This document shows, piece by piece, positions 2,760-43,385 of a stretch of DNA of 64,000 nucleotides. Positions within the stretch are counted from its first letter, which is position 1, and each line of letters starts with the position of its first letter. Source of the stretch: an uncultured Gemmatimonadaceae bacterium (GTDB taxonomy: Bacteria > Gemmatimonadota > Gemmatimonadetes > Gemmatimonadales > Gemmatimonadaceae). The notes beneath the pieces were generated by a model. It made no database searches, was not told where the DNA came from, and saw only the letters and a program-made list of their open reading frames with translations. The stretch spans positions 192,001-256,000 of the forward strand of contig CAVVTZ010000009.1 of NCBI GenBank assembly GCA_963751275.1. The letters are read 5' to 3'. The position numbers were made by a program, and so were the translations under genes.

Positions 2760-2973
2760 CACTACAACTGCTTGTACGCGGATTCCGCGGAATCCGCGGA
2801 TCACGCGGAAGGCCCTGCGAGGCGACGGAGCCCCTCGCGCCGAGTCGCTGCCGTGTCTTTGTTGTTAACCACAGGAACACAGCCTCGATCAAGCGTGAGG
2901 AGCTTTCATCGCGCTCCGAGCGATCCGCGTGATCCGCGGATTCCGCGGAATCCGCGTGCAAGCAGTTGCGGTG
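2760..2973. repeat. Core-arm palindromic element, copy A
   Basis: 50-bp inverted arms 2760-2809 / 2924-2973 with 3 mismatches; CGGA at 2779, 2788, 2797, 2806; GTTAAC at 2864-2869, exactly central. Confidence 0.95.
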
Positions 2974-3002
2974 GATCTGAGTATCCTCGTGATGCCAGAA
3001 TG

Positions 3003-3035
3003 AAAAAAGCGGCGGGCGATGATCTCGCCCGCCGC
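3003..3035 (-). terminator. Rho-independent terminator
   Basis: 11-bp stem GCGGCGGGCGA/TCGCCCGCCGC; A6 on + strand gives a U-tract on - strand, just past the stop at 3061. Confidence 0.75.
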
Positions 3036-3060
3036 CTTGCTGTTGCCCAACGCCCAGTCC

Positions 3061-5068
3061 CTACATTGTCTCCTTGCCGAGCATCTTCACGACGCCGGCC
3101 AGCACGCCGACCTTCGCGGGATCGCCGGCGCCCTTCTCGTCGGCATCGAGCGACGCCGCGAGCTTGTTCAGTTCGTCGTTGCGAGCCGCAGCCGACGCCT
3201 TCTCGGCGCGGCCGAGCGCCTCACGCGCGTCCTTGATCTTGCCGCTCGCCAGACCGTCCATGCGCTCGAGCTGGTCGAGGTACGCACGCGCCAGCACGAA
3301 CGTCGCCGGCCACACGAGCTTCGGCTGACCCTGCGTGTTGAGGTAGTCGAAGTGCACCGTCTTCGCCGCCGCGATCTCGTTCGCCGAGAGATACGGGCTC
3401 GGCGTCAGCTCGAAGATGTCGAGACCGCGCGCGATCTCGGAGCTGACGATGTAGCCGTTGTACCAGTACGCCGACCACGACTCCGCCCATCGCCATGCGC
3501 GGTCGAGTCGACCGGGCCGCGGTCGAAGAAGGCGATCTCCTTCGGGTGCGCCGGCGTCGGTCCAGTCGAACACCGAGATGCCGCCCTGGTACCACGCCTG
3601 CACCATGACGTCGCGCCCGGGGATCGGGATCAGCGACGCCGTTGTGCGCCACGCAGTTCTCCTGCGCCGTCTGCGGCGCCGGCATCTTGTAGTAGCCCTG
3701 GAACACCATCTTGCCGTCCTCGATCGTGAAGATCGCGTCGGCGCCCCAGTCCTTCGGGTCCGTCGCGCGGCACTTCGGCGCGCCGCCGCCGCCCCACTCG
3801 TCGGAGAAGAGGATCTTCGGTGCCGTCGTTGTTGAACGTCGCCGAGTGCCAGTAGCGAGAAGTTCGAGTCGGCCACCGCGTCGAGGCGCGTCGGGTGCGC
3901 CGGGTCGCGGATGTCGAGCAGCAGGCCGTAGCCCTCGCACGCGCCGCCCGCCAGCCCGATCGCCGGATAGACCGTGATGTCGTGGCACTGCGTCGGGCCG
4001 GGACGCGGGCGTGGCCCGGCGTGACCGGCGTAATCGCCGCATCTGTCATGATCGCCTGTAGGTGCGCCGCGCAGCGCCGCGCTGTCGGCCGCCGTCGGCG
4101 CGCCCGTGCCGCCGCGCGCCTTCACGACGCTGTCGAGCATCGGATCGACGAACTGCGGCGAGGAGCACGACGCTGCGGCCGAGCACGTCCACCATGAAGC
4201 GCGCCCTTCGCGCGCGCCGAGTCGGCCGCGCCTTGTTCGCGGCGGCGATGTCCTGCGCGCGCCTCGCCGTGCGCCGGCGGCGCTGGCTCAGATCGTCGAA
4301 GATCCGCGGCGAGCTGACGATCGCGGCCTGCTCCGGATGCGCGAGCGGCACCTTGATCACCTCGATGCGGAACAGCGCCGAGTTCGGATCCTGGTCGGGC
4401 GCCGCGCTCGAGCAGCCCGCGCAGCTCGTTCGGCGAGCGCACGCCGCGCCGAGCCCGAGATGTAGATGTAGACGTTGTCCGGGTCCTTCGGATCGATCGA
4501 GCACCGTGTGCGTGTGCGAGCCGCGGCAGGTCTGCACGTTGGCGACGTACTTCGGATGCGCGATGTCGCTGATGTCGAAGATGCGGATACCGCGCATACG
4601 CTCCTGGCTCACCGTGTCCTTGCACGCCTTCGGTGCCGCAGTCGAGGCGGCCGGTGGTCGCTTCCCGGACACGAACAGCAGGTTCTTGTAGACCGACACG
4701 TCGCTCTGCGACGCCGGACAGACGTAACGCGACCTTGAGCGTCGGGCTTGCTCGGGGTTGGAGATGTCCCAGATCTGGATAGCCGCAGTAGTTGCCCTGG
4801 ATCACGTAGTTGCCGAGGAAGGCGAGGTCGGAGTTGCGTCTGCCCCGACGAACTTCTCGGAGGGCCGGCGTATTCGAGACCAGCCGCATGTTCCACGCCG
4901 CCTCGCCGGCGTCCCACAGGCCGGCCTTGAGGCCGACGCGCGGATCGGGGCTGCGGCGCCGACGACGTTGCAAGCTCTGCGATGCCGGGTGCTGTGCGAT
5001 GCGGCCGCGGAGCATGCAGGGCGGCGGCGAGCACTGAGCGAGCGGCGCGAGTGATGCGGGAATGCCAT
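3061..5068 (-). CDS. LVIVD-repeat (beta-propeller-like) secreted protein, multiply frameshifted
   Basis: Fragments across frames: NSDLAFLGNYVIQGNY, VQTCRGSHTHT, QCHDITVYP, FSDEWGGG, ENCVAHNG, QAWYQGGISVFD, WSAYWYNG. Confidence 0.75.
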
Positions 5069-5082
5069 GGTTGCGCGATCCT

Positions 5083-5763
5083 CTACGGAGCGGTGGGGGG
5101 AAGGGCGGCGAGCATCTGTTCATGCGGGCGATCTCGGTGGTCTGATCGACCTGCACGTCGTTCGCGAACTTGAAGACGAGTTCGTCCTCGCCGGCGCCGT
5201 CGGTGCGCGAAGAGCTCGTTGACCATCTGCACGGCACCCGTGTGGTGCTGGATCATGTCGGTGAGGAAGAGCCGGTCGAACTCGGTGCCGCGCGCGGCGT
5301 CGAGCTGCCTTCATCTGCGCGGCGGTGAGCATGCCGGGCATGAGCATGGTCATGCTCCATGCCGTCCATCATCATCTTCATGCCGTTCGGGATCGGCGTC
5401 GGGCACCGGCTAGCTGCCGGTCGATGCAGCCACTGCTGCATGAGTGACGATCTCGTCGGTCTGCGCATTGATGATGCGCGCGGCGAGGGTCTGGATGGAC
5501 GGGCTCGCGCCGTGCGTCGGCGCCCACTTGGCCATGACGACGGCCTGCGCGTGGTGGCCGATCATCCCCTGCATGAAGTGGACGTCCGCCTCGACGTACG
5601 GATGGCGGAGGCTGTCGGCCTTGGCCTTGGCGATCGCCGCGGCATCGGGTTGGACGACACCGGGCTGGACGTTCCCCGGCGCGACGTTCTGCGCCGCGGC
5701 CGAGAAGGCGAGCGAACCCGCCGCGATCGCGGCGAGGACGGTGCGGATACGTGGGGTCATCAT
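5083..5763 (-). CDS. DUF305 family protein, frameshifted; 3' end approximate
   Basis: ADVHFMQGMIGHHAQAVVMA, MPGMLTAAQM, DQTTEIARM; signal peptide. Confidence 0.8.
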
Positions 5764-6073
5764 GAGCCTGATTCTCCAGCGGGGCGGCGTTCACGCGCCC
5801 TTGGTTGTGACGGTGAGACGAGCCCTTGAGTTTGCAGCGCGGACGCGCCCAATGCAACCCGGGCATCGGGTCGATTAATACGCTCGGCGCGGCGGGTTCG
5901 TTGGGGGTTCAGGCGCGCAACACGAACTAACTGCTTTGCACGGGATCGCGGAACAGGATGCACGGAATTGACCAGTGATGGACTGCGCCGGCGCCAGGTC
6001 GCGGTCATCTTGTCAATCAACCGATCACAGCCTGACTGGTCATGGAGCACTTCGCCTCAAGGAGCAGTTAGCG

Positions 6074-8353
6074 TCATTCGTGGTTCGCTGCCCCGCGCGC
6101 AGAGACCGAGCGACGATCACAGAGCTTCATCTTCGCGACCAGCGCCTCGAATCGCTTCATGCCGCGCAGTCCGTCGAGGATCGGGTTCACGCGAAGGTAG
6201 GCCATGAAGCCGCGGCGGTCATCGTAGGAGCGCTCGAGCCAGTCGAGCGTCTCGTCCCAGTTCTCCAGTCCCAGGTGCGCGGTCGCGAAGGCCACCGGCG
6301 ACACGTAGTCGTGCTCGGCGAGCTCGTGCAGCTGCTCGAGCTCCAACTCGGCTTCGCGGCGGCGGCCCGCGCGCGCGAGCACGTACGCGAGCGTCGCCCG
6401 GTTGTACGTGCCGCCCTTCGACAGCGCGCACGCCTCGCGCGCGTCACGCTCCGCGCGCGCGTGATCGCCGAGCATGGCGTGGCAGAGCGCGGCCACGCGA
6501 TAGGTCTCGTCGGCCTCGGGGTTCATCGCGATCGCGCGCTCGAGCCGCGGGCGTCCCTCCGCATAGCGCCGCGCGTAGTAGTAGATCCACCCCATCGTGC
6601 GCCGCATCGACACCGACGCGGGGTCCAGCTCCACCGCGCGCTGCGCTTCCGCGATCGCTTCATCGTGCCGCCCGCGCGACGTGAGCCAGAACGAGTACCA
6701 CTGGTGCGCCGTGGCGTAGCCCGGGTCCAACTCCATCGCGCGCGCGAATTCCCGCCGCGACTCCTCCCAGTTCCAGTCGTAGACGAACAGGCTCCACGCG
6801 AGCGACGCGTGCGCCTCCGCGACGGTGTCGTCCAGCGCCAGTGATTTGCGCGCGTACTCTTCGGCCAGCGCGAAGCCTTCCTGCACCGGCACGTTGCGGT
6901 AGTCGATCTGCAGCGAGTACGAATCGGCGAGGCCCGTGTACGCCTGCGCGTACTTCGGGTCGAGCGCGATCGCCTGCTCGAAATAGCGGATCGCCTCGGT
7001 GACGCCCTCCTGCGTGCGCTTGTTCCAGGCGTAGCGGCCCTTGAGATAGAGCCCGTACGCCTCGACGTTCGCGGTGCGGGGGGTCCAGGGCGGCTCGGCG
7101 AGCTGCACGAAGGTGAGCGCGCGCAGCGTTTCCACGATCGTGCGCGCCAGCTCTTCCTGGATGGCGAAGACATCCTCGAGCGTGCGGTCGTACCGTTCCG
7201 ACCAGACGACGCGGCCGTCGTCGGTGGTGGTGAGCTGCGCCGTCACGCGCAGCCGCTGGCCGGCGCGGCGCACCGTGCCCTCGAGCACCCACGCCGCGTC
7301 GAACTGCGCGCCGATCGCGCGCACGTCCTGCGGCTTCCCCTTGAGCGCGAACACCGAGGTGCGCGACGCGACGCGCAGGCCGTGCACCTTGGCGAGCGCG
7401 TCGATCAGTTCATCGGTGATCCCATCGCTCAGGTATTCCGTGTCCGGCTCGGGGCTCGCATTCACGAACGGGAGCACCACGATGCCGCGTCCCGCGCGCG
7501 GCTCCGCGGGCGCGTCGGTGCCGTCGCTCTGGAGCGCCGAGACGAACTCGATGATCGACGGGTAGCGCTCGTCGGGATCCTTCGCGAGCGCGCGCGTGAG
7601 GGCGCGCTCGACGCGCGTGGGCACCTCGGGGCGCATGGTGCGCACGGGACGGGGCGTCTCGGTCACCTGCTTCGCCATCGTCGAGCGCGACCCTGATCCG
7701 CGGAGCGGCGGCTCTCCGGCGAGCATCTCGTACGCGACGCAGGCGAGACTGTAGGTGTCGGTGGAGAAGGTGGCGTCGTCGTCGCCTGCCGCCTGCTCGG
7801 GGCTCATGTATTCCGGGGTGCCGAGCACCATGCCGGATTCCGTGATGATCTCCGGCGCCGCGTCACAGCAGACGCGCGCGATGCCGAAATCGGAGAGCAC
7901 CGCGTGGCCGTCGGCGAAGAGGATGTTCTCCGGCTTCACATCGCGGTGGATGTAGCCTTCGCGGTGCGCGTAATCGAGCGCCGAGCCGATGTCGCGCACG
8001 ATGCGCAGCACCTCGGCGAGCGGCATGCGGCCGCTCTGCTGGATGCGCTGGCGCAGCGACCCCTCGCGCACGTACGGGCTCACGTAGTAGAGGAAGCCAT
8101 CGGCCTCGCCCGAGTCGTACAGCGGCAGGATGTGCGGGTGCGCGAGCCGCGCCGCGATCTCGATCTCCTGCAGGAACCGCTCGGCGCCGAGCGCCGCCGC
8201 GAGCTCGGGGCGCAACACTTTCACCGCGACCTTGCGATGATGCTTGAGGTCGTCGGCCAGATAGACCGTAGCCATCCCCCCACTCCCCAGTTCGCCGGAG
8301 ATGGCGTACCGGGGAGAGAGCGCGGATTGCAGGGCGCCGAGCGGAGCCGTCAT
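6074..8353 (-). CDS. Ser/Thr protein kinase with TolB-like and TPR C-terminal domains
   Basis: GSGGMATVY, VAVK, HRDVKPEN, DFG, GTPEYMSPEQ; IVVLPFVN...YLSDGIT; TPR helices. Confidence 0.92.
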   Translation of the reverse strand: MTAPLGALQSALSPRYAISGELGSGGMATVYLADDLKHHRKVAVKVLRPELAAALGAERFLQEIEIAARLAHPHILPLYDSGEADGFLYYVSPYVREGSLRQRIQQSGRMPLAEVLRIVRDIGSALDYAHREGYIHRDVKPENILFADGHAVLSDFGIARVCCDAAPEIITESGMVLGTPEYMSPEQAAGDDDATFSTDTYSLACVAYEMLAGEPPLRGSGSRSTMAKQVTETPRPVRTMRPEVPTRVERALTRALAKDPDERYPSIIEFVSALQSDGTDAPAEPRAGRGIVVLPFVNASPEPDTEYLSDGITDELIDALAKVHGLRVASRTSVFALKGKPQDVRAIGAQFDAAWVLEGTVRRAGQRLRVTAQLTTTDDGRVVWSERYDRTLEDVFAIQEELARTIVETLRALTFVQLAEPPWTPRTANVEAYGLYLKGRYAWNKRTQEGVTEAIRYFEQAIALDPKYAQAYTGLADSYSLQIDYRNVPVQEGFALAEEYARKSLALDDTVAEAHASLAWSLFVYDWNWEESRREFARAMELDPGYATAHQWYSFWLTSRGRHDEAIAEAQRAVELDPASVSMRRTMGWIYYYARRYAEGRPRLERAIAMNPEADETYRVAALCHAMLGDHARAERDAREACALSKGGTYNRATLAYVLARAGRRREAELELEQLHELAEHDYVSPVAFATAHLGLENWDETLDWLERSYDDRRGFMAYLRVNPILDGLRGMKRFEALVAKMKLCDRRSVSARGAANHE

Positions 8354-8405
8354 AAGGGAAATATCCCTGATTCCGGCGCGCGGGGCCACTGACCGAAGTG
8401 TGCGG

Positions 8406-8639
8406 TTGTCGTTAACAAGGAAATCGGATCTTCATCCACGCCCTCGGAGCCATTCGGTTGCAAGGTCCCTTCCGCGTACTCCGCGCATTCCGCGTGATCC
8501 GCGTGGAAGCAGTTGTAGTTAGAGAACGACAACTGCTTCCACGCGGAACGCGCGGAATGCGCGGAGTGCGCGGAATGCTCAGGGCGCGCGGATGGCGCCG
8601 CGAGTGTCAGCCGGGTCATTCACTTGTGGTTAACTGCAA
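8406..8639. repeat. Inside-out core-arm element (core, right arm, left arm, core), copy B/C
   Basis: GTTAAC at 8411-8416 and 8629-8634; arms ~8470-8520 and ~8525-8575 back to back; CGGA at 8544, 8553, 8562, 8571. Confidence 0.9.
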
Positions 8640-8687
8640 GAACGGGAAGATTCGATAGGACATACTTACACCGGGAGACCGCATCAC

Positions 8688-9479
8688 GTGATCACTCGCC
8701 TCGGACTCCGCACCGCTGCCGTTCTTGCCGGGCTCTCGATCGCCGCCGCATCCCGTGCGCAGGGCGCGCCAGCCACCGGGATCGCGCTCTTCGAGCAGAT
8801 GCGCCAGGCCTATCAGGGGAAGTGGTACTCCACGGTCACGTTCGTGCAGAAGACCACCACGAAGCGCGCCGACGGCTCCGATTCCGTCGCCACCTGGTAC
8901 GAGAGCCTGCGCTACACCCAGCCGCGTGGCTCGCAGCTCCGCATCGACTTCGGCCCGCCCGCGCTGGGCAACGGCGTGCTCTATACCGCGGATTCGCTCT
9001 GGGTGATGAAGGCCGGCCAGCTCGCCGCGACGCGCGGGCACGGCAATGCGCTCCTGCCGCTGATCGATGGCGTGTACATGCAGCCGGCGGCGCGCACCGG
9101 CGCGGAGCTCGCCTCCACGGGCGTGGACCTCACGCGCAGGCCGGTGCTCGCGCAGTGGGAAGGGAAGACCGTGTGGATCATCGGCGTGGCCTCGGCGGCC
9201 GACACTGTGTCGCCGCGATTCGTCGTCGACTCGGCGACGCTCAACGTCGTGCGCGCGGTGTTCAGCCTCTCGCCGGGACGCGAGATCGATGCGCGGTTCA
9301 AGGACCTCGTGCGCGTGGGCGGCGGCTGGCTCGCCGTACGCTGTGAGTTCTACGAGCATGGCACGCTCGCGACCACCGAGGAATATTCCGACTGGAAGGG
9401 GAACGTCGAGCTGCCCGCATCGCTCTTCGACATCACCCAATGGAGCGCGGGCCCGCACTGGGCGGCGCCCGCGAAGTGA
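8688..9479 (+). CDS. Secreted hypothetical protein (possible LolA-like fold)
   Basis: GGAG RBS, signal peptide, WYSTVTFVQ...TWYE...LRID; host-like codon usage. Confidence 0.7.
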   Translation: MITRLGLRTAAVLAGLSIAAASRAQGAPATGIALFEQMRQAYQGKWYSTVTFVQKTTTKRADGSDSVATWYESLRYTQPRGSQLRIDFGPPALGNGVLYTADSLWVMKAGQLAATRGHGNALLPLIDGVYMQPAARTGAELASTGVDLTRRPVLAQWEGKTVWIIGVASAADTVSPRFVVDSATLNVVRAVFSLSPGREIDARFKDLVRVGGGWLAVRCEFYEHGTLATTEEYSDWKGNVELPASLFDITQWSAGPHWAAPAK

Positions 9480-9483
9480 ACCC

Positions 9484-9927
9484 ATGTCGCCTGAGCCGAT
9501 CACCTTCCATCGCGCCACGCCGATCGTGCGCGTCCGCGATCTGGCCGTCAGCGTCGAGCACTACGCCACGGCTCTCGGATTCACGGTCGATTGGCACGAC
9601 CGCGGCATCATGGCGGGCGTGAGCCGCGAGAAATGCCACCTCATGCTCTGCGAAGGCGACCAGGGGCATTTCGGCAGCTGGGTGTGGATCGGCGTGAGCG
9701 ATGCCGTGGCGCTCGAGAAGGAACTGCGCGGCCGGGGCGCGAAGATCCGGCATCCGGCTACCAACTATCCTTGGGCGATCGAGGTGCAGGTGGAGGATCC
9801 CGACGGCAACGTGCTGCGCTTCGGCTCGGACGAAGATCCCGCGAAGCCGGCCGGCGAGTGGCTCGATGCCACCGGCGCACGCTGGGAGATGAAGGCCGGA
9901 GGAGGCTGGAAGCGCGTGGAGGAATGA
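9484..9927 (+). CDS. VOC / glyoxalase / bleomycin-resistance family protein
   Basis: PIVRVRDL...YATALGF, YPWAIEVQVEDPDGNVLRFG. Confidence 0.88.
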   Translation: MSPEPITFHRATPIVRVRDLAVSVEHYATALGFTVDWHDRGIMAGVSREKCHLMLCEGDQGHFGSWVWIGVSDAVALEKELRGRGAKIRHPATNYPWAIEVQVEDPDGNVLRFGSDEDPAKPAGEWLDATGARWEMKAGGGWKRVEE

Positions 9928-9928
9928 G

Positions 9929-10843
9929 TTGATCAAGGTCCTCGGCGAATCCGACGTTCGCGCTGCGCTCCGCTGGGAGGAACTCATACCGGCGATGGCG
10001 CGCGCGCTCGCCGATTTCTCCGCGGGGCGCGTGGTGCAGCCTACGCGCAGCTGGCTCACGCTCGAGGAAGGACAGCGCCACCTCGGCGTGATGCCTGCCG
10101 CCACCGATCGCGCGGCTGGACTGAAGTTCGTGAGCCTCTATCAGAAGAATGAGGGGACGCGCCTGCCCACGGTGATGGCCACCGTGCTGCTCGTGGACCC
10201 GCAGACGGGCGAGCCCGTGGCGCTCGTGGAGGGCACCTTCCTCACCGCGATGCGCACCGCCGCCGTCTCGGCGGCCGTCGCGGATGCGATCGCGCCACGC
10301 GATGCCGGCGTGCTCGCGATGCTCGGCAGCGGCGTGGAGGCGGGCACGCACCTCGAGGCGATGCGCAGCATCCGGACGATCCGCGACGTGCGCGTCTGGA
10401 GTCGTACGCCGGCGCACGCGGCGGCGTTCGCGAAGGCGCACGACGCGACGGCGATGAGCGCCGAGCAGGCCGTGCGGGGCGCGGACATCGTGGTGTGCGC
10501 GACCGCGACGCACACCGCGGTGCTCGAGGGGGCGTGGCTTAAGAGGGGCGCGTTCGTGGCCTCGATCGGCGCGCCGAGCCCCAAGTGGCGCGAGGTGGAC
10601 GACGCCGCGATGTCGAACGTCCTGGTGGTGGATTCGCGCGACGCGTCACTCGCTGAGGCCGGGGACGTGATCCAGACCGGCGCGCCGATCTACGCCGAGG
10701 TGGGGGAGATCCTCTCCGGGAAGATCGCGGTGCCCACGGGGCGCACCGTGATCTTCAAGTCCAACGGACTGGCGGTGGAGGATGTCGTCGCGGCGCAGAT
10801 GGTCGTGGAGCGTTCCTCGGGCCGCGTGCCTCGTGCCTCGTGA
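9929..10843 (+). CDS. Ornithine cyclodeaminase / mu-crystallin family protein
   Basis: LGVMPA, LTAMRTAAVSA, GSGVEA, ADIVVCAT, FKSNGLAVED. Confidence 0.9.
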   Translation: MIKVLGESDVRAALRWEELIPAMARALADFSAGRVVQPTRSWLTLEEGQRHLGVMPAATDRAAGLKFVSLYQKNEGTRLPTVMATVLLVDPQTGEPVALVEGTFLTAMRTAAVSAAVADAIAPRDAGVLAMLGSGVEAGTHLEAMRSIRTIRDVRVWSRTPAHAAAFAKAHDATAMSAEQAVRGADIVVCATATHTAVLEGAWLKRGAFVASIGAPSPKWREVDDAAMSNVLVVDSRDASLAEAGDVIQTGAPIYAEVGEILSGKIAVPTGRTVIFKSNGLAVEDVVAAQMVVERSSGRVPRAS

Positions 10844-10881
10844 CGGCGCGGCGAGGCACGAGGAACGCGGCCCGAGGAACG
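10811..10881. repeat. Heptamer-based hairpin (GTGCCTC/GAGGCAC family) between convergent genes
   Basis: 30-bp arms 10811-10840 / 10852-10881 with one mismatch. Confidence 0.85.
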
Positions 10882-10882
10882 T

Positions 10883-11492
10883 TCACTGTCCCGTCGGCAT
10901 CATCGGCGTGTAGCTGACGAACCGCGACGCGATCATCGCGATCACGACGTAGAGGATGATCGCGCAGACGATGACGGCGATCGTGTAGCCCATTGCCTTG
11001 TCCTCCGGCACCTTCATCAGCACCGGCAGTCCGAGGTAGATGAGGTACAGGCTGTAGAGCCCGAGGATGCCGAGGATCCCGAGCATGGGGACGATCGCGA
11101 AGATGCCCGCGAGCCAGCCGGCCGTGCTCGCGTAGGCACACACCTTGAGCGCTTGCACCGTGTTCTTCTGGCCGCCGAAGGTCGGCGCGAGCCCATCGAC
11201 GATCAGCGCGAGCACGTACACGCTCACGAGGCCGAGCACATACCGCGCGATCGCTCCGGTGAGCAACGTCGTGAAGGGGATGTGCAGCGTGCCGACGATC
11301 GGGAGCGACAGCCCGAAGAGCGACATGCCGATGAGCGATGCCAGATCGGCGGGATCGCCGAGAGCGGGACGATGTAGCCCATATAGAGCGCTTGCACGCT
11401 GGTGCTCTCGCCGTCGATCACCGGCCATTCGGCACGCGGCTGCATGATGATGTTCTTGGCGCGCGCGATCAGGGCTCCCTGGGATCCGTCAT
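10883..11492 (-). CDS. Yip1 family membrane protein, frameshifted
   Basis: RAKNIIMQPRAEWPVI, LAPTFGGQKN, ALKVCAYASTAGW, LYSLYLIYLGLPVLMK. Confidence 0.85.
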
Positions 11493-23866: not shown

Positions 23867-24165
23867 GGCTCCTCGGATCCTCAGCCGCCTCGATGCCGAA
23901 CACACGCATCACAGTTCAAGTTTGAACGGATCAACCGGATTGGAGCGGATGACGCGGATCGCTCCGCGTGGCGTATTGGCGCCGTGAGGCGAGGCGGAGT
24001 CCGCGCACTTGTTGTTAACGACAAATACGATAACTCGACCCTACTCGGCGATCCTGCTGCACCCATGGAGCAATCCGCGTCATCCGCTCCGATCCGGTTG
24101 ATCCGTTCAAACTTGAACCGTGATGCGTGTGTTCGGCGTCGCGGCGGCTGAGGATCCAAGGAGCC
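23867..24165. repeat. Core-arm palindromic element, copy D (extended arms)
   Basis: ~99-bp inverted arms 23867-23965 / 24067-24165; CGGA at 23927, 23936, 23946, 23955; GTTAAC at 24014-24019, central. Confidence 0.95.
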
Positions 24166-27457: not shown

Positions 27458-27577
27458 GTCGTTAGTCGTAGGCATTTAGTCCGAGGCATGACAACGGATG
27501 GCGTAAGACTCTCGAACTCGCTTTCACACCATACAATTGGTTGTCATGCCTCGGACTAAACGCGTACGACCAACGAC
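27458..27577. repeat. Inverted repeat, GAGGCATGACAAC family
   Basis: 38-bp arms 27458-27495 / 27540-27577 with 3 mismatches; 44-nt loop. Confidence 0.9.
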
Positions 27578-28112: not shown

Positions 28113-28327
28113 ATCACGGTAGAAGTTTCGGCCGGATCAACCGGATGATTCCGATTATCCGGATAGGCCTGAGGGTACTCACGCACCCGAGGCGCGGGTC
28201 GAGGGCCGAATTGTTGTTAACCACAAATACACAGCGCCGGCCGTCTCGCACGGTGCATCTCCGGCGCGCGGAGCAATCCGATTGATCCGAGTCATCCGGT
28301 TGATCCGGCCGAAACTTCTATCGTGAT
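28113..28327. repeat. Core-arm palindromic element, copy E
   Basis: Arms ATCACGGTAGAAGTTTCGGCCGGATCAACCGGATGA... and complement; C(G/C)GA at 28133, 28142, 28151, 28160; GTTAAC at 28216-28221. Confidence 0.92.
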
Positions 28328-30291: not shown

Positions 30292-30424
30292 GCGAGTGTG
30301 AACCCCGAACCACGTACTTGGTCCCCCGAACTCCGTCAGAAATGAGTGGTTCGTTGTACGACGAACCTCTCGTTATTCGCGGAGTTCGGGGGACCAATGA
30401 CGGGGTTCGGGGTGCCACACTCGC
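30292..30424. repeat. Imperfect long intergenic hairpin
   Basis: GCGAGTGTG..ACCCCGAACC..TTGGTCCCCCGAACTCCG pairs with CGGAGTTCGGGGGACCAA..GGTTCGGGGT..CACACTCGC. Confidence 0.85.
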
Positions 30425-35433: not shown

Positions 35434-36117
35434 ATGCGGGTGCTGCTGTTCGGCGCGACCGGCATGGCCGGCCGCGCGGTGTTCGAGGCCTGCCTGGCGT
35501 CGCCGGTGGTGACGCAGGTGCGCGCCATCACGCGCGCTCCGCTCGCCGAGCCGTCGCGGAAGTTCGTGGGCGTGGTGCACGGCGATCTCAGCGACTACTC
35601 AGCGGTGGAGCCGGCCTTTCGCGATGTGGACGTCTGCCTCTTCTGCGTGGGGATCTCCTCGACGCAGGTGCCGGAGGAATCCGCCTACCGGAGGATCACG
35701 TACGACTTCCCGCTCGCGGCCGCCGCCGCGCTGCGCTTCGGAAGTCCGGCCGCGCAGTTCCAGTATCTGAGCGGCGACGGCGCGGGCCTCGACAGCCGCT
35801 TCATGTGGGCGCGCGTGAAGGCGGAGGCCGAGCGCGATCTCGTGGCGCGGTACCAGGCCGTGTGCTGGCGTCCCATGATCATCGGCGCGAAGGCGTCGGC
35901 GAATACGCCATTCGCGTACAAGCTGGTATTCCCGCTCTTCCCGTTGATGAAAGGATTCCGGCGATTCTACGTGAGCGGCGCGGATCTCGGCAACGCGATG
36001 ATCCAGGCGAACATTGAACGCACGCGCAGCCGTGTGATCAAGGCCGCGGAGATCCGGGATTTCGCCGATCGGTACTCGAGGGTGAGCCACCGGACTTCGG
36101 GGCCGGTCAAGGTCTAG
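35434..36117 (+). CDS. NAD(P)-binding epimerase / atypical SDR
   Basis: LFGATGMAG, FMWARVKAEAE. Confidence 0.88.
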   Translation: MRVLLFGATGMAGRAVFEACLASPVVTQVRAITRAPLAEPSRKFVGVVHGDLSDYSAVEPAFRDVDVCLFCVGISSTQVPEESAYRRITYDFPLAAAAALRFGSPAAQFQYLSGDGAGLDSRFMWARVKAEAERDLVARYQAVCWRPMIIGAKASANTPFAYKLVFPLFPLMKGFRRFYVSGADLGNAMIQANIERTRSRVIKAAEIRDFADRYSRVSHRTSGPVKV

Positions 36118-36127
36118 GAGGCGAATC

Positions 36128-36802
36128 ATGTTCGTCGGACACTACGGACCTAGCTTCGCCGCGAAGAAGGCGGACACATCGATCCCGCTCTGGGTGCTGT
36201 TCCTCGCGGTGCAGCTGCTCGACGTCGGCTGGGGCGTCTTCGTGCTCCTCGGCGTCGAGAAAGTGCGGATCATCCCGGGCTTCACGAAGTCGAATCCGCT
36301 CGATCTGTATTACATGCCGTATACGCACGGGCTCATCACCGCGCTCCTCTGGTCCGCGGGCGCGATGCTGCTCTATCGGTTCTTCTGGAAGAGCGCGACC
36401 ACGCGCGCGGGATTGATCGTCGCGGCAGCGGTGTTCTCGCACTGGGTGCTCGACTTCATCGTACACATCCCCGATCTACCGCTGTATGGCAACACGGCGA
36501 AGGTCGGACTCGGCCTCTGGAACTATCCCGCGATCGCGCTGCCGCTGGAGATCGTGGTCTTCGTTGGCGGACTCTGGATGTACTTCAGCACGGGCATCAA
36601 ACGGCGGATGCAGTTTGTGGTCCTGGGCATCGGAATGTTCGCGATCCAGATCGCGACCTTCTTCGGCCCGCCGCCGCCGTCGGCCAAGCTGGCCGCCGCC
36701 GAGGCACTGATCGCGTATTTCCTGTTCGCGGGACTGATCGCGTGGATGGAGAGGCGCGAAATGGGGGTCCGGCCTCCCGAACTACAACAATCGACAGGAT
36801 GA
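36128..36802 (+). CDS. Membrane protein, metal-dependent hydrolase-like
   Basis: MFVGHYG, PYTHGL, FSHWVLD..VH.PDLP, GLGLW. Confidence 0.8.
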   Translation: MFVGHYGPSFAAKKADTSIPLWVLFLAVQLLDVGWGVFVLLGVEKVRIIPGFTKSNPLDLYYMPYTHGLITALLWSAGAMLLYRFFWKSATTRAGLIVAAAVFSHWVLDFIVHIPDLPLYGNTAKVGLGLWNYPAIALPLEIVVFVGGLWMYFSTGIKRRMQFVVLGIGMFAIQIATFFGPPPPSAKLAAAEALIAYFLFAGLIAWMERREMGVRPPELQQSTG

Positions 36803-36894
36803 ACATGATGTGCATGATGAACGGCGGTGACGCCGTTCATCATGCACATCATGTTCATCCTGTCGATTGTTGTAGTTCGGGAGGCCGGACCCCC
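36763..36894. repeat. Perfect 64-bp-stem palindrome (CAGGATGAACATGATG family)
   Basis: 36763-36826 is the exact reverse complement of 36831-36894; loop GTGA. Confidence 0.97.
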
Positions 36895-38291
36895 TAGAAC
36901 GGATTATCCGGCAGCACGATGAATCGCGGCCGATCCACGACCACGCCGTCGAGATGCAGCATCGCGAGTCCGACGCCGGCCGCGCCCTGCATCATTCCGG
37001 TCTGCGCGATCACGTCGGCGGGCGAGATGCGATTCTCCGCCTGGATCCACTTGAGTCCGTCGCCGTCGATCGTCGCGCGCGCCATGGTGTCATCCGCGAC
37101 CTTCACCGCGAACACGAGATGCCGGCGTTCCTTGGTGAGCGCATACATCGACAGGAAGAACTCGCACACGCCGGAATTCCCGCAGCACTGCGAGATGTTG
37201 TTCCAGTAGCCCGAGAGATCGGGATGCTTCTCGGGCACGCCGCTGTCGATGATTCCCTGCGCGAGCTTCGGCACCTGGCTCGACCACTTGGCGTCTCCGG
37301 TCGCGACGCCGAGTTGGTGATAGAGGCGCGCGGTGCCCGCCGGCCCGTGGCACCAACTCAGATAGTAGAGATCCTCGCCGCCGGGCTCGTGGTGGAAGAC
37401 CTTCTTCCCCGCGGGACCGGTCGCGACCGCGATCGCGTCGAGGTACGTCGCGCCCGCGATCGCCGCGTCGAGGAAGGCGCGCTCCTTCGTCGCGAGATAG
37501 AGCGTCGCAAGGAAATATGAAACGCCCCCGGTGCCGTGCGAGAAGTTCGGATACAACTTCGCGACGCTTGGGCTCGATTGCCACTTGAGTCCGCCCTCCG
37601 CCGGGATCCCCACCTCCACGAGATGCCGCCCCGCCTTCGCCGCGGCGTCGCGCGCCTTCGGGTCGTTGAGCGCCTTCTCCGCCCAGAGCATCGTGAGCCC
37701 GATCCCCGCGCCGCCGGCGATGATGTCGTACACGCTGTTCCACGCAATGCCGTTCCCCTGCGGCGTCGCGGCCGCGTGCAGGAGCGTCATCGCGCGCTGC
37801 GCGCCCGCGTAGTACACATCGCGTCCGGTGGCCGCGTGCGTGCGCTCGAGCACGTACGCGATGCCCGCCGCGCCCGTGTACAGTCCCACGCCTTCTTCGC
37901 CGAGCTCCGCTGCCGTGGCGGGCAGTGTCGCGATGAGATAGTCCGCGCCGGATGCGGCGCGCTCGAGCATCGCCGGATCCCTGGTGGCCGACCACGCTTC
38001 GAGATAGAACAGCACGACGCCGGGCGTGCCGTTGTACATGTCGGTCTCGATCACTTCCGGCTTGAGCGGGTTCGCCGGCCACGCGGTGCCGCGCGCATCG
38101 CGCACCGCGCTCCGGCGGATCCACTGCTCGGCGCGCAGCGACGCGTTGTAGTACGGCCGGCTCGGCGCGAACAGATCGCGGAACAACCGCCGCCACCCTT
38201 CCGGCGCCGTGATCATCGCCGCGAACGCCGCCCCGCGCTCCAGCAGCGCGCGCCGCGTGAACCCCTCATGCGAGCCCGTGTCGTACGCCAT
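36894..38291 (-). CDS. LanC-like (lanthionine synthetase C) protein with putative Tat signal
   Basis: Repeated GxxG motifs, NFSHGTGG, SWCHGPAG, QCCGNSG, GMMQGAAG; TRRALL. Confidence 0.85.
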   Translation of the reverse strand: MAYDTGSHEGFTRRALLERGAAFAAMITAPEGWRRLFRDLFAPSRPYYNASLRAEQWIRRSAVRDARGTAWPANPLKPEVIETDMYNGTPGVVLFYLEAWSATRDPAMLERAASGADYLIATLPATAAELGEEGVGLYTGAAGIAYVLERTHAATGRDVYYAGAQRAMTLLHAAATPQGNGIAWNSVYDIIAGGAGIGLTMLWAEKALNDPKARDAAAKAGRHLVEVGIPAEGGLKWQSSPSVAKLYPNFSHGTGGVSYFLATLYLATKERAFLDAAIAGATYLDAIAVATGPAGKKVFHHEPGGEDLYYLSWCHGPAGTARLYHQLGVATGDAKWSSQVPKLAQGIIDSGVPEKHPDLSGYWNNISQCCGNSGVCEFFLSMYALTKERRHLVFAVKVADDTMARATIDGDGLKWIQAENRISPADVIAQTGMMQGAAGVGLAMLHLDGVVVDRPRFIVLPDNPF

Positions 38292-38380
38292 GAGCTATCC
38301 TATGGAAGGTCCGTCGCGCATGTCAATGAGTGGTTCGTACGGGTCCACGAGTTCTCAGGTTCCATGCGCAGCGACCCAAG

Positions 38381-38597
38381 CATCACGGTTCAAGCATGAA
38401 CGGATCAACCGGATGATCCGGATGCGACGGATCGCTCCATGAGGCGCATGAGTGCCCCGTGGCAATGTCGGCTTCGATGATTTGTTGTTCACAACAAAAT
38501 CGAACGCCTGCGTCAGCGCGCCGGCTTCTCTGCGCGCATGGAGCGATCCGCCGCATCCGCCCCATCCGGTTCATCCGTTCATGCTTGAACCGTGATG
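38381..38597. repeat. Core-arm palindromic element, copy F
   Basis: ~60-bp arms; CGGA at 38401, 38410, 38419, 38428; central TTTGTTGTTCACAACAAA (GTTCAC at 38487-38492). Confidence 0.93.
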
Positions 38598-38712
38598 AAT
38601 GTGTTCGCGCACTCGGAACGCGAGAACTCGCCGAGCCCGGCGTTCAACTAGCCACACGCTACCCCACACTCTAGTATTTACCACTCACCCTATGTTCCTC
38701 GAGGCCCTTGTC

Positions 38713-40767
38713 ATGCGGAATCGTCTGTTCGTTCTCCTCGCGCTCGCGATGGTGGCTGCGCCGCTCGATGCGCAGAGACCGACGAGCGACCGGCTCACGC
38801 TCAAGGACATCTTCGAGCTCGAGTGGGGCGCCGATCCGCAGATCGCGCCCGATGGCAAGCGCGTCGTGTTCGAGCGGCAGGGCTTCGACATCATGAAGGA
38901 CAACACGAAGAGTGCGCTCTGGATCGTGAACGCCGATGGCTCCGACCTCCGCCCGCTGCTCGATCCCACGCGGCAGGCCGGCAGTCCGCGCTGGTCGCCC
39001 GACGGCACGAAGCTGCTCTTCGTCTCGAGCGTGGATGGCAAGAGCGAGATCTTCGTGCGCTGGATGGACACCGGCGTCGAGGCGAAGCTCACGCACCTCG
39101 CCGAATCGCCGCGTTCGATCGCCTGGTCGCCCGACGGCAAGTGGATCGCCTTCTCGATGTTCGTCCCCGATGATCCGAAGCCGTTCGTGACGCTCCCCAC
39201 GCCGCCCGCCGGCGCCGACTGGGGACCGCCGCTGCAGTACATCGATCAGGTGCAGTACCGCTTCGACGGCCGCGGTTATCTCCGCCGCGGGCACACGCAC
39301 GTCTTCGTGCTGCCCGCCGAGGGCGGCACCGCGCGCCAGATCACCGACGGCGCGTGGGACGATGGCGCGCCGATGTGGAGTCCCGACGGCGCGGCGCTCA
39401 TCTTCTCCGGTAACCGGCACGCGGACGCGGAGTACGAGCCGAACAACAGCGACATCTACGAGGTATCCGCGACCGGCGGCGCGGTGAAGGCGCTCACCAC
39501 TCGCTATGGCCCCGACAACGATCCGGTCGTCTCGCCCGACGGCAAGACGATCGCGTACACCGGGTTCGACGACCGGCACCAGGGTTACCAGGTCACGCAG
39601 ATCTATCTGATGAATCGCGACGGCTCGGGCTCGCGCTCCCTCTCGGCGAAGCTCGACCGAGATGCGCGCGGTCTCGCGTGGAGCCGCGATGGCAAGGGAC
39701 TCTACTTCCAGTACGATGACCAGGGCGACACGAAGGTCGGCTTCATCACCACTGCCGGCGCGGTGACGGTGCTCGCGCACCAGCTCGGCGGCCTCGACCT
39801 CGGCCGCCCCTACGGCGGCGGATCGTTCACCGTCGCGAACAACGGGCGGTTCGCGTTCAACTTCACCACGCCGGACCATCCGGCCGACATCGCCGTCGGC
39901 GAGGCGGGACATCCGGTCGTGCGGCTCACGCGGCTCAATGATGATCTCTTCGAGCACAAGACCCTCGGCGCCGTCGAGGAACTGTGGTTCCCGTCGTCGT
40001 TCGACCAGCGCAAGGTGGAAGGCTGGATCATGAAGCCGCCCGGCTTCGATTCCACGAAGAAGTATCCGCTGGTGCTCGAGATCCACGGTGGTCCGTTCGC
40101 GAACTACGGCGCACGCTATGCGACCGAGCTCCAATTGTACGCGGCCGCGGGCTACGTGGTGCTGTACACCAATCCGCGCGGCTCCACGAGTTACGGCGAG
40201 GAGTTCGGGAATCTCATCCATCACGATTACCCGAACCACGATTTCGATGATCTGATGAGCGGAGTGAACGCCGTGATCGCGAAGGGCTACGTGGACACCA
40301 CGAACCTGATGGTCACCGGCGGCAGCGGCGGCGGCGTGCTCACCGCCTGGATCGTCGGCCACACGAATCGCTTCCGCGCGGCCGTCGTGCAGAAACCGGT
40401 GATCAACTGGTACAGCTTCGTGCTCACCGCCGACGCCGATGCCTTCTTCACGAAATACTGGTTCCCCGGCATGCCGTGGGACAACCAGGAGCAGTACATG
40501 AAGCGCTCGCCGATCACCTACGTCGGCAACGTCACCACGCCGACGATGCTCATTACCGGCGCGGTGGACTATCGTACGCCGAGCTCGGAGGCCGAGCAGT
40601 TCTACGAGGCGCTGAAGTTGCGGAAGATCCCGACGGCGATGGTGCGCGTGCCGAACGCCTCGCACGAGATCTCCGCGATCCCGAGTCACATGATGGCGAA
40701 GGTCGCATACATCCTGGGCTGGTTCGGCCAGTACCGTACGGGGAGCGGTACGCCGCTCACGCCGTAG
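38713..40767 (+). CDS. S9 family peptidase (acylaminoacyl / dipeptidyl peptidase)
   Basis: WSPDG repeats, IHGGP, NPRGS, TGGSGGG, DYRTP, HEI; signal peptide. Confidence 0.93.
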   Translation: MRNRLFVLLALAMVAAPLDAQRPTSDRLTLKDIFELEWGADPQIAPDGKRVVFERQGFDIMKDNTKSALWIVNADGSDLRPLLDPTRQAGSPRWSPDGTKLLFVSSVDGKSEIFVRWMDTGVEAKLTHLAESPRSIAWSPDGKWIAFSMFVPDDPKPFVTLPTPPAGADWGPPLQYIDQVQYRFDGRGYLRRGHTHVFVLPAEGGTARQITDGAWDDGAPMWSPDGAALIFSGNRHADAEYEPNNSDIYEVSATGGAVKALTTRYGPDNDPVVSPDGKTIAYTGFDDRHQGYQVTQIYLMNRDGSGSRSLSAKLDRDARGLAWSRDGKGLYFQYDDQGDTKVGFITTAGAVTVLAHQLGGLDLGRPYGGGSFTVANNGRFAFNFTTPDHPADIAVGEAGHPVVRLTRLNDDLFEHKTLGAVEELWFPSSFDQRKVEGWIMKPPGFDSTKKYPLVLEIHGGPFANYGARYATELQLYAAAGYVVLYTNPRGSTSYGEEFGNLIHHDYPNHDFDDLMSGVNAVIAKGYVDTTNLMVTGGSGGGVLTAWIVGHTNRFRAAVVQKPVINWYSFVLTADADAFFTKYWFPGMPWDNQEQYMKRSPITYVGNVTTPTMLITGAVDYRTPSSEAEQFYEALKLRKIPTAMVRVPNASHEISAIPSHMMAKVAYILGWFGQYRTGSGTPLTP

Positions 40768-40772
40768 CGCGC

Positions 40773-41171
40773 TTGCCCGGACTGCCGCTCACACTGCTCG
40801 CCCAGCCGCTCGCGATGTGCCAGCTTCCGGCGGATTCCTCCGAGCCCGCGTGGACGCGCGGGGCTCGCGCATTCCTGACGGTCAGTCGCACACCAACGGA
40901 ATTGTCGATCGTCGCCGATGAGCGTGCGTTCCCGGCGGACGTGAACGCGCAGCGCGGCTATCGCGCGTTCCGCGTGCAGGGGCCGCTGCCGCTGGATCTC
41001 GTCGGGATCTTCGCATCGCTCGCGGCGCCGCTCGCGGCGGAAGGGATCGCGATCTTCCCGATCGCGACGTTCGACACCGACTATCTGCTCGTGCATTCGC
41101 GCGACCTCGCGCGCGCGACCGCCGCGCTCGAGCGCGCCGGTCACGTGATCGCCGCAGAACCGCTTCTCTAA
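40773..41171 (+). CDS. ACT-domain protein (ACT_7-like); start approximate
   Basis: RTPTELSIV, GPL.LDLVGI, IFPIATFDTDYLLV. Confidence 0.82.
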   Translation: MPGLPLTLLAQPLAMCQLPADSSEPAWTRGARAFLTVSRTPTELSIVADERAFPADVNAQRGYRAFRVQGPLPLDLVGIFASLAAPLAAEGIAIFPIATFDTDYLLVHSRDLARATAALERAGHVIAAEPLL

Positions 41172-41180
41172 GGAGGGATC

Positions 41181-41618
41181 ATGACGCGTCGCACGGTCGT
41201 GCTGCTGCTGGCCAGCGTATTGCTCACGGGGAGCGCGCCCGACGATCCCCGTGCTCAGGTGATGGCCACGGAGACCGCGTTCGCGAAGACGATGGCCGAC
41301 CGCGACTATACCGCGTTCGGCACCTTCGTATCGAGCGAGGCGGTGTTCTTCACCGGCGCCGCTCCGCTGCGCGGCAAGCAGGCGGTGCTCGACCACTGGA
41401 AGCGCTACTATGACAAGGGGCCCGCGCCTTTCTCCTGGGCGCCCGAGAAGGTGGAAGTGCTCGAGTCCGGCACGCTCGCGCTCAGCACGGGGCCGGTGTA
41501 CGATCCCGCCGGCAAGCAGACCGGCACGTTCACATCTATTTGGCGACAGGATGCGCCCGGCGTCTGGCACATCGTGTTCGACAAGGGGAATCCCGTGTGC
41601 AACTGCGAGGCGAAGTGA
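41181..41618 (+). CDS. NTF2-like (DUF4440) secreted protein
   Basis: ETAFAKTMADRD, FSWAPE, FTSIWR...WHIVFDKG; AGGAGG RBS. Confidence 0.88.
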   Translation: MTRRTVVLLLASVLLTGSAPDDPRAQVMATETAFAKTMADRDYTAFGTFVSSEAVFFTGAAPLRGKQAVLDHWKRYYDKGPAPFSWAPEKVEVLESGTLALSTGPVYDPAGKQTGTFTSIWRQDAPGVWHIVFDKGNPVCNCEAK

Positions 41619-42652
41619 TACGACACTCGGTCGGCTCGATCGCTGTGTCGCTCGCCCTCGCGGCGCCCGCCCACGCGCAGATCGTGCACACCGACCAGCC
41701 GAGCGGCACGTCGGAATTATTGATCGCCGTGAGCCCGGTGAGCGACAAGGTCGTGTGGGTGAGCGGGCAGCACGGGACGTGGCTGCGCAGCACCGACGGC
41801 GGCGCGCACTGGCAGGTCGGGCACGTGCCCGGCGCCGATTCGCTCCAGTTCCGCGACGTGCACGCGGTGGATGCGAACACGGCCTATCTGCTCAGCATCG
41901 GCAACGGCTCGCAGTCGCGCATCTACAAGACCACCGACGCCGGCAAGCACTGGAGGCTGCAGATCACGAACACCGATTCGGCGGGTTTCTACGACTGCAT
42001 GGATTTCTGGGACCCGAAGCGCGGCGTGGCGGTGGGCGACGCGGTGGCCGGGCAGATAGTGATACTCACTACTATTGATGGTGGCGCCCACTGGAACCGC
42101 GTGCGCGCGTCGGCCCTGCCGGCGGCGCTGCTGAATGAGGGAAGCTTCGCCGCCAGCGGCACCTGTCTCGTCACTCAGCCGGGCGGCCACGCATGGATCG
42201 TCTCCAGCAACGCGCAGCAGGCGCGGTTGCTGCACACCGCGGATTTCGGCCGGTCGTGGCAGCTGGAGCCGCTGCCGATCACGACGCACTCGGGCTCCGG
42301 ACCGCAGTCGATCAGCTTCCGCGATCCGGAGAATGGCGCGGTGTTCGCCGGCGGCGCCGCGGTGTTGCCGAGCGATGAGCTCGTGGCCATTACCGTGGAT
42401 GGCGGCGCGCACTGGACGGCGCGCACGTCGCCCGACTTCAAACAGGGCCTCTGGGCGGGCGTGTACGTGCCGGGCGCGAACCCGACCGCGATCGTCGCGG
42501 TGGGCCCCGACGGTGCGGCGTACTCGCGAGACGACGGCATGACGTGGATCGCGATCGACAGCTTCGATTACTGGTCGGTGGGCATGGCCTCCCCGCGCGC
42601 CGGCTGGGCGGTGGGTGCGAAGGGACGGATCACCAAGTTGTCGGGCTTCTGA
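41615..42652 (+). CDS. BNR/Asp-box beta-propeller protein (Ycf48-like)
   Basis: Repeated T-x-D-G-G-x-x-W boxes; signal peptide. Confidence 0.85.
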   Translation: MIRHSVGSIAVSLALAAPAHAQIVHTDQPSGTSELLIAVSPVSDKVVWVSGQHGTWLRSTDGGAHWQVGHVPGADSLQFRDVHAVDANTAYLLSIGNGSQSRIYKTTDAGKHWRLQITNTDSAGFYDCMDFWDPKRGVAVGDAVAGQIVILTTIDGGAHWNRVRASALPAALLNEGSFAASGTCLVTQPGGHAWIVSSNAQQARLLHTADFGRSWQLEPLPITTHSGSGPQSISFRDPENGAVFAGGAAVLPSDELVAITVDGGAHWTARTSPDFKQGLWAGVYVPGANPTAIVAVGPDGAAYSRDDGMTWIAIDSFDYWSVGMASPRAGWAVGAKGRITKLSGF

Positions 42653-42678
42653 GCATCTCTCTCGCAGCGAGGGGCACC

Positions 42679-43167
42679 ATGCATCTGCATCCGATCGTTG
42701 GCGCCGCGCTCCTTCTTGCCGCGGCCTGCGCACCCGCGGCGCCGTCCAAGCCCGGGCTCCCGCCGGTCACGAAGGAGGACGGCGATCGCGTCGCCCGGGA
42801 GATGGCCGCCGACGGCTCCCGCCTCGACGTACCCGCGCTCGTGAAGTTCATACCGCGAACGGACCGCATTGTGTATGTGAGCGACACGAACCCGATCAGC
42901 GGCAACGCCTACGCCAAGGAGATCGGCGACTTCTACAAGACGCTGAGCAAGCTCGACTACCACTGGGACAGCCTGCAATCACTCCCGATCAGCGACAACG
43001 CCGTGATCGTGACGGGCTGGGCGAGCATCACGACGGTCCCGCTCAAGGGAAGAACGGAATCGGTGCGCGCGATCGTGACCAGCGTCTACGTTCGCGATTC
43101 CACCGGCTGGAAGCGCGTGATCTCGCACAAGACCACCATCCCGCCGCCGAAGGCCGGTGGGAAGTAG
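42679..43167 (+). CDS. NTF2-like lipoprotein
   Basis: LLLAAAC lipobox; TSVYVR...GWK..ISH. Confidence 0.7.
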   Translation: MHLHPIVGAALLLAAACAPAAPSKPGLPPVTKEDGDRVAREMAADGSRLDVPALVKFIPRTDRIVYVSDTNPISGNAYAKEIGDFYKTLSKLDYHWDSLQSLPISDNAVIVTGWASITTVPLKGRTESVRAIVTSVYVRDSTGWKRVISHKTTIPPPKAGGK

Positions 43168-43180
43168 GAAAGTCGAACCA

Positions 43181-43385
43181 CAACAGCTTGTACGCGGATC
43201 GCGCGGAGTCCGCGGATGACGCGGAACGCTCCCGGTGGCGGATCGGCGCATCGAGCGATCGCAAGCGATCGTATTTGTTGTTAACAACAAATTCAGGTCG
43301 TCGCCGCGACTCGTCGGCCGCGGATCGCCGCGCGGAGCACTCCGCGTGTTCGGAGGATTCCGCGTGGTCCGCGTACAAGCCGTTG
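43181..43385. repeat. Core-arm palindromic element, copy G
   Basis: CGGA at 43195, 43204, 43213, 43222; perfect 20-bp core ATTTGTTGTTAACAACAAAT at 43273-43292. Confidence 0.93.

Follow-up and report, generated by a model that had tools for sequence, protein, structure and literature searches.

What kind of element is a palindrome that recurs between the genes of one bacterium with a fixed geometry and a changing sequence? The question was raised by a window of 64,000 nucleotides (the whole stretch of DNA analysed; positions 192,001 to 256,000 of contig CAVVTZ010000009.1, assembly GCA_963751275.1) from an uncultured Gemmatimonadaceae bacterium. A full element is about 215 bp long and intergenic. 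Each of its two inverted arms consists of four CGGA units with a period of about 9 bp, and spacers separate the arms from a 16-bp core at the axis of symmetry. We incline slightly to reading the copies as non-autonomous, gene-less forms of cassettes carrying a GxxExxY gene, comparable to the doublets of REPs (repetitive extragenic palindromes) known as REPINs; cutting or crossover would then probably take place at the core.

Spacing and core of the element

The genome to which the window belongs (G000; 3.1 Mb, 68% GC, 83% complete) contained 28 cores within 3 mismatches of TTGTTGTTAACAACAA, compared with none in a 3-Mb third-order Markov simulation. Arms were present on both sides of 25 cores and on one side of 3, and the armless cores that the original prediction had proposed to look for were not found among these 28. 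A hidden Markov model (HMM) of the arms alone gave 67 matches in the genome, 50 of which were the training arms. The 17 others comprised 7 with a core within four mismatches, 2 that belonged to one full element with a decayed core, and 8 without a core. The number of full elements in the genome was 27.

The distance from the innermost arm unit to the axis, the genome-wide distribution of which had also been proposed as a check, was narrow. It was 59-63 bp in 54 of 54 halves, with a mean of 61.1 bp and a standard deviation (SD) of 0.86, when a search window of 50-68 bp was used. In the five full copies of the window the units start 59-62, 68-71, 77-81 and 86-90 bp from the axis, and one unit reads CCGA in two of the arms. 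With a search window of 41-80 bp and an automatic anchor, 50 of the 53 scored halves from G000 and 66 of the 91 scored halves from relatives lay at 54-66 bp. The halves outside this range were mostly about one unit further out and are probably anchor errors.

In 13 direct pairs of elements the core showed 0.019 substitutions per site (4 changes in 207 sites), compared with 0.059 in the arms, 0.079 in the spacers and 0.078 in the outside flanks. The difference between core and spacer or flank (P 0.0002) shows purifying selection on the core. Deviations at core positions 1-8 were one-sided 63 times and compensated once among 73 elements. Such one-sided changes indicate a two-fold site in double-stranded form rather than a hairpin stem, and the core as a hairpin stem was ruled out for this reason. 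Indels occurred freely in the spacers of the 13 pairs, with 19 events and a net length change in 10 of 26 halves. A neutral indel walk predicts a spacing SD of 1.7-2.4 bp, and because the observed value was lower (0.86, or 1.29 including relatives), the length between arm and core is modestly constrained.

The closest arm was the mate arm in 23 of 54 halves, and the closest spacer was the mate spacer in 2 of 54. Spacer similarity was 0.52 both within a copy and between copies (shuffled, 0.49). The spacers had been described as unrelated, which holds for the two sides of one copy, whose similarity does not exceed that between copies; as a set, however, they have a weak consensus and are inherited between species. 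The two arm types distinguished previously, GCGGA and CGGAT, do differ between copies, but the subtypes number more than two. Local hypermutation of the spacers was rejected, as their rate equals that of the outer flanks and C/T changes were not in excess over A/G. No target-site duplication was found, the longest direct repeat across the outer flanks being 4.5 compared with 4.3 in a cross-locus null.

GxxExxY cassettes and the filled form

Three GxxExxY genes are present in G000. Two lie between inward-facing arms of the GACAGGAT type, and the third is found a short way downstream of a full element with core. GxxExxY genes across relatives were, by eye and in the rows listed, mostly flanked by inward-facing arms with a period of 8-9 bp, and the arm type appears to follow the clade of the protein. 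For the clade of the third gene 112 loci were gathered. A loose arm pattern was found in 72 of the 90 cassettes of this clade with both flanks, as against 4% of random windows. With loci from the own genus excluded, the HMM from the element arms of G000 matched flanks of the clade in 44 of 96 cases upstream and in 55 of 103 downstream. Of the two controls, the other strand gave 6 of 96 and far flanks gave 1 of 75; other GxxExxY clades gave 0 of 11, 1 of 5 and 1 of 11. These sequence matches place the arms of the elements among the inverted repeats of 9-bp period on either side of GxxExxY genes.

At 6 loci in 4 congeneric genomes a full element lies upstream of a GxxExxY gene, 250-280 bp from its V-Y codons. 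The 6 loci represent two independent (orthologous) sites; the chance of such proximity in the own genome was 0.008. A GxxExxY relative was present in 204 of 301 genomes of the bacterial family. The tree and the clade counts include one protein of the unpublished genome G012, and some tallies include the unpublished genomes G012, G055, G153 and G313; none of the claims depends on these. The genes were often frameshifted or split, and the copy adjoining an element in G005 (L058) was broken.

At one metagenome locus (L170) a GxxExxY gene lies inside an element. The order is arm, spacer, TTGTTGTT / AACTACGG, upstream region, GxxExxY gene, CCGTAGTT / GACAACAA, spacer and arm. The gene is intact (128 aa), and its stop codon lies within the second core. 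The cassette of promoter and gene occupies 465 bp between the two core axes, and the arms lie 68 and 63 bp outside. The inner 8 bases of both cores are identical, and the outer half-cores, when joined, give TTGTTGTTGACAACAA, a core variant that occurs in gene-less copies. The right half of this arrangement, from the same locus, was found again in L230, the 5' part of which is fused to another gene. From this one locus, the core axis can bound gene-bearing and gene-less forms, which implies neither a direction nor an enzyme; filled and gene-less forms are known from different loci only. The gene between two half-elements on one contig and the HMM matches in the flanks bear out the GxxExxY lead given with the original prediction, and they support its suggestion of a non-autonomous element acted on in trans.

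The structure of the GxxExxY protein was modelled from 72 sequences with a predicted local distance difference test (pLDDT) score of 94; an earlier model from 3 sequences (pLDDT 58) had given no clear match. The best structural matches, with Z up to 7.9 (root mean square deviation 3.1, 95 aligned), were nucleases of the restriction-enzyme, Cas4/RecB and Hjc types, and Foldseek matched 4ic1 with an E of 3e-4. Residues E40, D69, E79 and K81 were at least 90% conserved among the 72 sequences and fit the E, D and ExK catalytic residues. Sequence searches of the PDB gave no relative of the protein. It is a predicted PD-(D/E)XK nuclease, the sub-type of which is unsettled with Z under 8. The protein is a member of the PDDEXK_3 / GxxExxY family (PF13366, TIGR04256). 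This family has been listed with function unknown and many transfers, and the available portion of the source names no DNA element or repeats (PMC3424549).

Orthologous sites, relatives and features of the window

From four congeners 56 elements were analysed (of 62 cores listed, four were not retrieved and three were dropped, namely a core at a contig edge, a duplicate and a core with more than 2 mismatches; one was added). Forty-nine of the 56 were syntenic on both flanks in G000, where the gap held an element in 32 cases (two across 3-kb gaps) and none in 17. These 17 cases correspond to nine sites, which were classed by eye: 7 hold another hairpin or 7-mer array family, 1 holds the second copy of a tandem pair, and 1 is cleanly empty and too diverged to judge a target-site duplication. 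At two further sites in closer relatives, with flanks 91-97% identical, the family was swapped in three of four comparisons.

Where both species had the element, the arm subtype often differed, and both arms differed jointly. The spacers in 75 orthologous pairs were in place in 16, swapped in 6 (four sites, by threshold) and unclear in 53. An inverted interior between unchanged flanks and outer arm ends was plain in two alignments and weaker in a third. Two full elements with different arm subtypes were found end to end at L047 and L071 (G004, G002) and at L053 (G005), where G000 and G005 have one; such pairs suggest insertion beside an existing copy.

A strict two-sided pattern occurred at 29 loci among 185,579 species genomes, all of them Gemmatimonadaceae or Gemmatimonadota. 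Four of five congeners have 6, 28, 13 and 15 cores (six in G001, 15 in G005), and no core was found in the congener G003 (82% complete). Outside the genus, 6 of 295 genomes of the family had the core pattern, each at a single place; two of these were full elements, two had arms at other distances and two were armless. One further full element came from another family. In the outside-genus elements and in three loci of the strict-pattern search the spacing was 58-66 bp, with other arm types. A second geometry was seen in four halves with the arm 17-19 bp from the axis (L148:1480-1530, L149:1500-1560, L040:1-60), about four helical turns closer than 61 bp. Three near-identical copies in G002 with the same flanks on different contigs (L042, L046, L077) are probably a strain duplication in the bin. 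Viral contigs gave 120 loose-pattern matches, with one arm-like candidate (L245) and no GxxExxY gene, and these were taken as chance.

The features of the window are collected in Table 1. All five complete copies reported previously were recovered in place, each with four-unit arms. The inside-out copy reported at 8.4-8.6 kb exists as well, but it is really two half-elements, each with its core at 61 bp. The pair lies between divergent genes, and no sigma-70 promoter or terminator was found in its region (8.2-8.85 kb). The inverted symmetry of element 2 extends about 40 bp outward past the arms. In this and one other element the symmetry reaches out to 127-150 bp on either side of the axis, as though sequence of one flank had been transferred to the other.

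Table 1. Elements, half-elements and sister hairpins in the window (positions in the window)
Feature	Position	Strand	Remarks
Full element 1	2760..2973	none	GCGGA-type arms; between convergent genes
Left arm, element 1	2760..2810	+	AAC-type outer end, then CGGA units starting 2779, 2788, 2797, 2806
Core, element 1	2859..2874	none	Axis after 2866
Right arm, element 1	2924..2973	-	94% complementary to left arm
Half-element	8406..8521	-	Core 8406-8421 (axis after 8413), spacer, arm directed at own core
Half-element	8523..8639	+	Arm, spacer, core 8624-8639 (axis after 8631); back to back with half-element 8406..8521
Full element 2	23867..24165	none	CGGAT-type arms; core 24009-24024; axis after 24016
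Full element 3	28113..28327	none	CGGAT-type arms; core 28211-28226; axis after 28218
Full element 4	38381..38597	none	CGGAT-type arms; core 38482-38497, central GTTCAC; axis after 38489
Full element 5	43176..43390	none	GCGGA-type arms; core 43275-43290, a perfect palindrome; axis after 43282
Sister GACAGGAT-type coreless hairpin	36763..36894	none	Arm type flanking the other two G000 GxxExxY genes
Sister GACAGGAT-type arms, back to back	45841..45928	none	
Sister GACAGGAT-type arms, back to back	61484..61569	none	

The sister GACAGGAT family forms 73 clusters in G000, without such a core by eye and commonly in a back-to-back layout. Hairpins of this type make up a larger family and are often perfect palindromes to the centre, with inward, back-to-back and tandem-array layouts. 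Further intergenic hairpins, mostly of 7-mer units, lie at 10808-10884, 27458-27577, 30302-30413, 49311-49387, 55869-55986 and 61648-61789. Six four-helix-bundle (TIGR02436) genes in G000 may be partners of these hairpins.

The genes next to the elements (14 open reading frames, 5 without a Pfam match) are unrelated and include those for a Ser/Thr kinase, a pirin, a LanC-like protein, an S9 peptidase and malate synthase; a regulon was ruled out for this reason. The Peptidase M90 gene at 43431-44234 gave an extra match to an anthrax lethal-factor domain, which was weak and under the cut-off. No tRNA was found.

Mechanism, rival explanations and known systems

The observations at hand are arms in common with the cassettes, a two-fold core under selection and at a constant spacing, a single cassette with its limits at the axis, flipped interiors, rewritten arms and replaced slots. 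If the elements are gene-less forms of GxxExxY cassettes, several copies of the GxxExxY protein would bind the four units of each arm and act at the symmetric core at the set distance. The nuclease, supplied in trans, would cut at the core, and the gene would be lost or gained or the element rewritten. Repair of the break from the mate arm or from other copies would keep the arms matched, overwrite their subtype and replace older hairpins, a process that has been proposed for REPINs and RAYTs. Gene-less copies would arise when the gene between two cores is lost, and the same step in reverse would amount to a homing-like insertion. A more specific proposal is a landing-pad system, in which a PD-(D/E)XK nuclease of about 130 residues reads four 9-bp-phased sites per arm and cuts the core 61 bp away, the cassette moves in and out, the interior flips, and the arms are rewritten together with enzyme subtypes. 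This proposal is tentative, and we would sooner doubt than accept it in full.

Several results weigh against the elements being gene-less cassettes. The filled form was found in 1 of 138 cassettes scanned, apart from the L230 half at the same locus, and 29 further loci from 401 genomes yielded no more filled cassettes. L170 is itself a metagenome contig, with a left spacing of 68 and not 61 bp. Most cassettes of the third-gene clade carry arms without a core. The sole GxxExxY match of G001 (89% complete), a genome with six cores, belongs to another subclade. Only one site is cleanly empty, and without a target-site duplication movement to new sites is barely documented. Inverted arms of 50 bp can give rise to an inversion without a dedicated enzyme. 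The protein's fold and its Q93/Y97 motif point to end- or structure-processing nucleases no less than to site-specific cutters, QxxxY being a mark of the RecB family. Finally, several arm subtypes share the same core, as would also be expected of a host factor.

Such a factor is central to the rival explanation that survives best, a domesticated host nucleoprotein site with arms from GxxExxY cassettes, a dimeric host protein on the core and a second protein on the arms. The core is conserved, varies like a two-fold protein site and is common to several arm subtypes, in other genera at 58-66 bp, but it is missing from G003 and its pattern is present in only 6 of 295 outside-genus genomes. An element stands in the matching G000 gap for 32 of 49 syntenic copies from relatives, yet other hairpin families take over the slots even where the flanks of two relatives are 91-97% identical. 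The spacing SD lies below that expected from the indel rate of close relatives, and the four halves with the arm 17-19 bp from the axis are closer by about four helical turns; the filled form at L170 is left unexplained. A host site of this kind would resemble the E. coli BIME-1/RIB with its integration host factor (IHF). The IHF consensus, WATCAANNNNTTR, was found in 0 of 27 elements, and neighbouring genes are unrelated. A matS-like terminus site was rejected, as G005 has dnaA at 1.92 Mb and its 15 cores are spread over 0.29-2.95 Mb, on both sides, without clustering at the predicted terminus. The dnaA match of G000 (G000:C7:99313-100643) is in two pieces in different frames, which represents a frameshift or an assembly error. 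The original prediction of a nucleoid, topoisomerase or IHF site found no direct support in the IHF consensus, the terminus, the neighbours or the turnover of sites, and it keeps some probability from the conserved core, which goes with several arm subtypes. We consider a host site improbable.

A role of the RNA is less probable again. The gaps would then keep a long hairpin of any family for termination, RNase III processing or mRNA protection, with the core as its tip. Whole copies do fold as one long hairpin (z of -14.5 and -16.8), but pairing of a spacer with its mate (-30.8 kcal/mol) is not better than pairing with other spacers (-29.7 kcal/mol), and the spacers form no hairpin of their own (mean z of -0.24). 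A cloverleaf or four-way RNA with spacer hairpins was likewise rejected. At 7 of 9 orthologous sites that lack the element, the gap is occupied by a different hairpin or array, and the elements were in mild excess between convergent genes (8 of 32 compared with 70 of 658, P 0.017). However, a hairpin needs no fixed arm-core distance, half-elements keep the core at 61 bp without a pairing partner, and changes in the core are uncompensated. Rfam gave no gathering-score match in the window. A function of this kind could be a side benefit and not the origin.

Least probable is a fold-back relic, in which each half would be an arm plus the first ~20 GxxExxY codons, duplicated in inverted orientation at the near-palindromic E-V-Y-N codons, with a length that is inherited and not selected. 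In one clade a spacer-only matrix gave an identical 5' register for 12 of 15 proteins, spacer and core peaked at matching places on 22 cassettes (0-2 of 40 column shuffles reached the score), and a gene-derived matrix scored elements above shuffles; but the register ranks 2 of about 108 gene offsets, tied with others, the inner spacer by itself ranks 19 and the outer one 10, HMMs of the gene window place 0 elements among the top 100 genome matches, the third-gene clade has its arm about 145 bp and not 61 bp from the E-V-Y-N codons, L170 carries spacer and core outside an intact gene, and the core is under purifying selection. The GxxExxY codons D-M-V-V-D-E-K are a further near-palindrome with a core-matrix score almost equal to that of the E-V-Y-N codons, probably by chance.

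Among known systems the REPINs with their RAYT transposases are closest to the gene-less cassettes. In the available portions of the sources, REPINs are inverted doublets with a set spacing and weakly conserved spacers (Bertels and Rainey, PMC3116915), and a mixture of REPIN types is reported for 13 of 20 conserved spaces, which was read as overwriting (REPORTH, 10.1101/2024.10.14.618302). The present element is likewise an extragenic, hairpin-capable inverted doublet with a set spacing and a weakly conserved spacer; it is tied to a low-copy nuclease gene, and conserved gaps are overwritten by other subtypes. The partner here has a PD-(D/E)XK fold and is not an HUH Y1 transposase, and a search for a RAYT partner, as suggested previously, gave no match to Y1 HUH RAYT (PF01797) in any of three genomes (G000, G002 and G005; 83, 63 and 89% complete). 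The arms consist of four units with a 9-bp period in place of short GTAG-tagged stem-loops. REP units are tagged with GTAG or CGTC at one end, according to the accessible part of PMC3733652; near the outer ends GTAG was found in 5 of 54 cases. The element further differs in its conserved central core, in that a gene can occupy the core axis, and in having tens of copies and not hundreds. On balance, a REPIN-like system with a different enzyme class is the description to which we give a little more than even credence.

In E. coli, BIME-1 (bacterial interspersed mosaic element) and RIB-RIP elements consist of two REPs around an IHF site. They share with the present element two inverted arms at a fixed distance and an AT-rich centre, but the core here is a palindrome and the arms are not REPs. 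Like a MITE (miniature inverted-repeat transposable element), the element is short and non-coding, has inverted ends and is probably an internal-deletion form of a gene-bearing element. It differs from an insertion-sequence-derived MITE in that it has no target-site duplication, its partner is no DDE transposase, and the conserved breakpoint is central with the arms outside the gene. By the tests run, the element is neither a REP or REPIN member, a classical MITE nor an IHF-type BIME.

Homing endonuclease genes have empty and filled alleles, and the att sites of tyrosine recombinases have a core plus arm sites. A nuclease gene at the centre of a symmetric site resembles the former, but many dispersed empty sites occur here in place of one conserved target, and there is no intron or intein. 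Core and arm sites at a set distance resemble the latter, but no recombinase is linked.

No description of the element or of repeats flanking GxxExxY genes was found in the literature covered, which left out most subscription papers and supplements. The new findings are the core at its fixed spacing, the filled cassette and the inverted interiors. The element offers a short and specific candidate substrate for the widespread GxxExxY family (PF13366), for which a cut point is predicted, a rule of spacing is given and a filled form occurs in nature. If the landing-pad proposal is true, this would be the first REPIN-like system with a restriction-type nuclease and the first defined substrate of the GxxExxY family. 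If the model holds, a second, non-HUH class of enzyme would maintain populations of extragenic palindromes.

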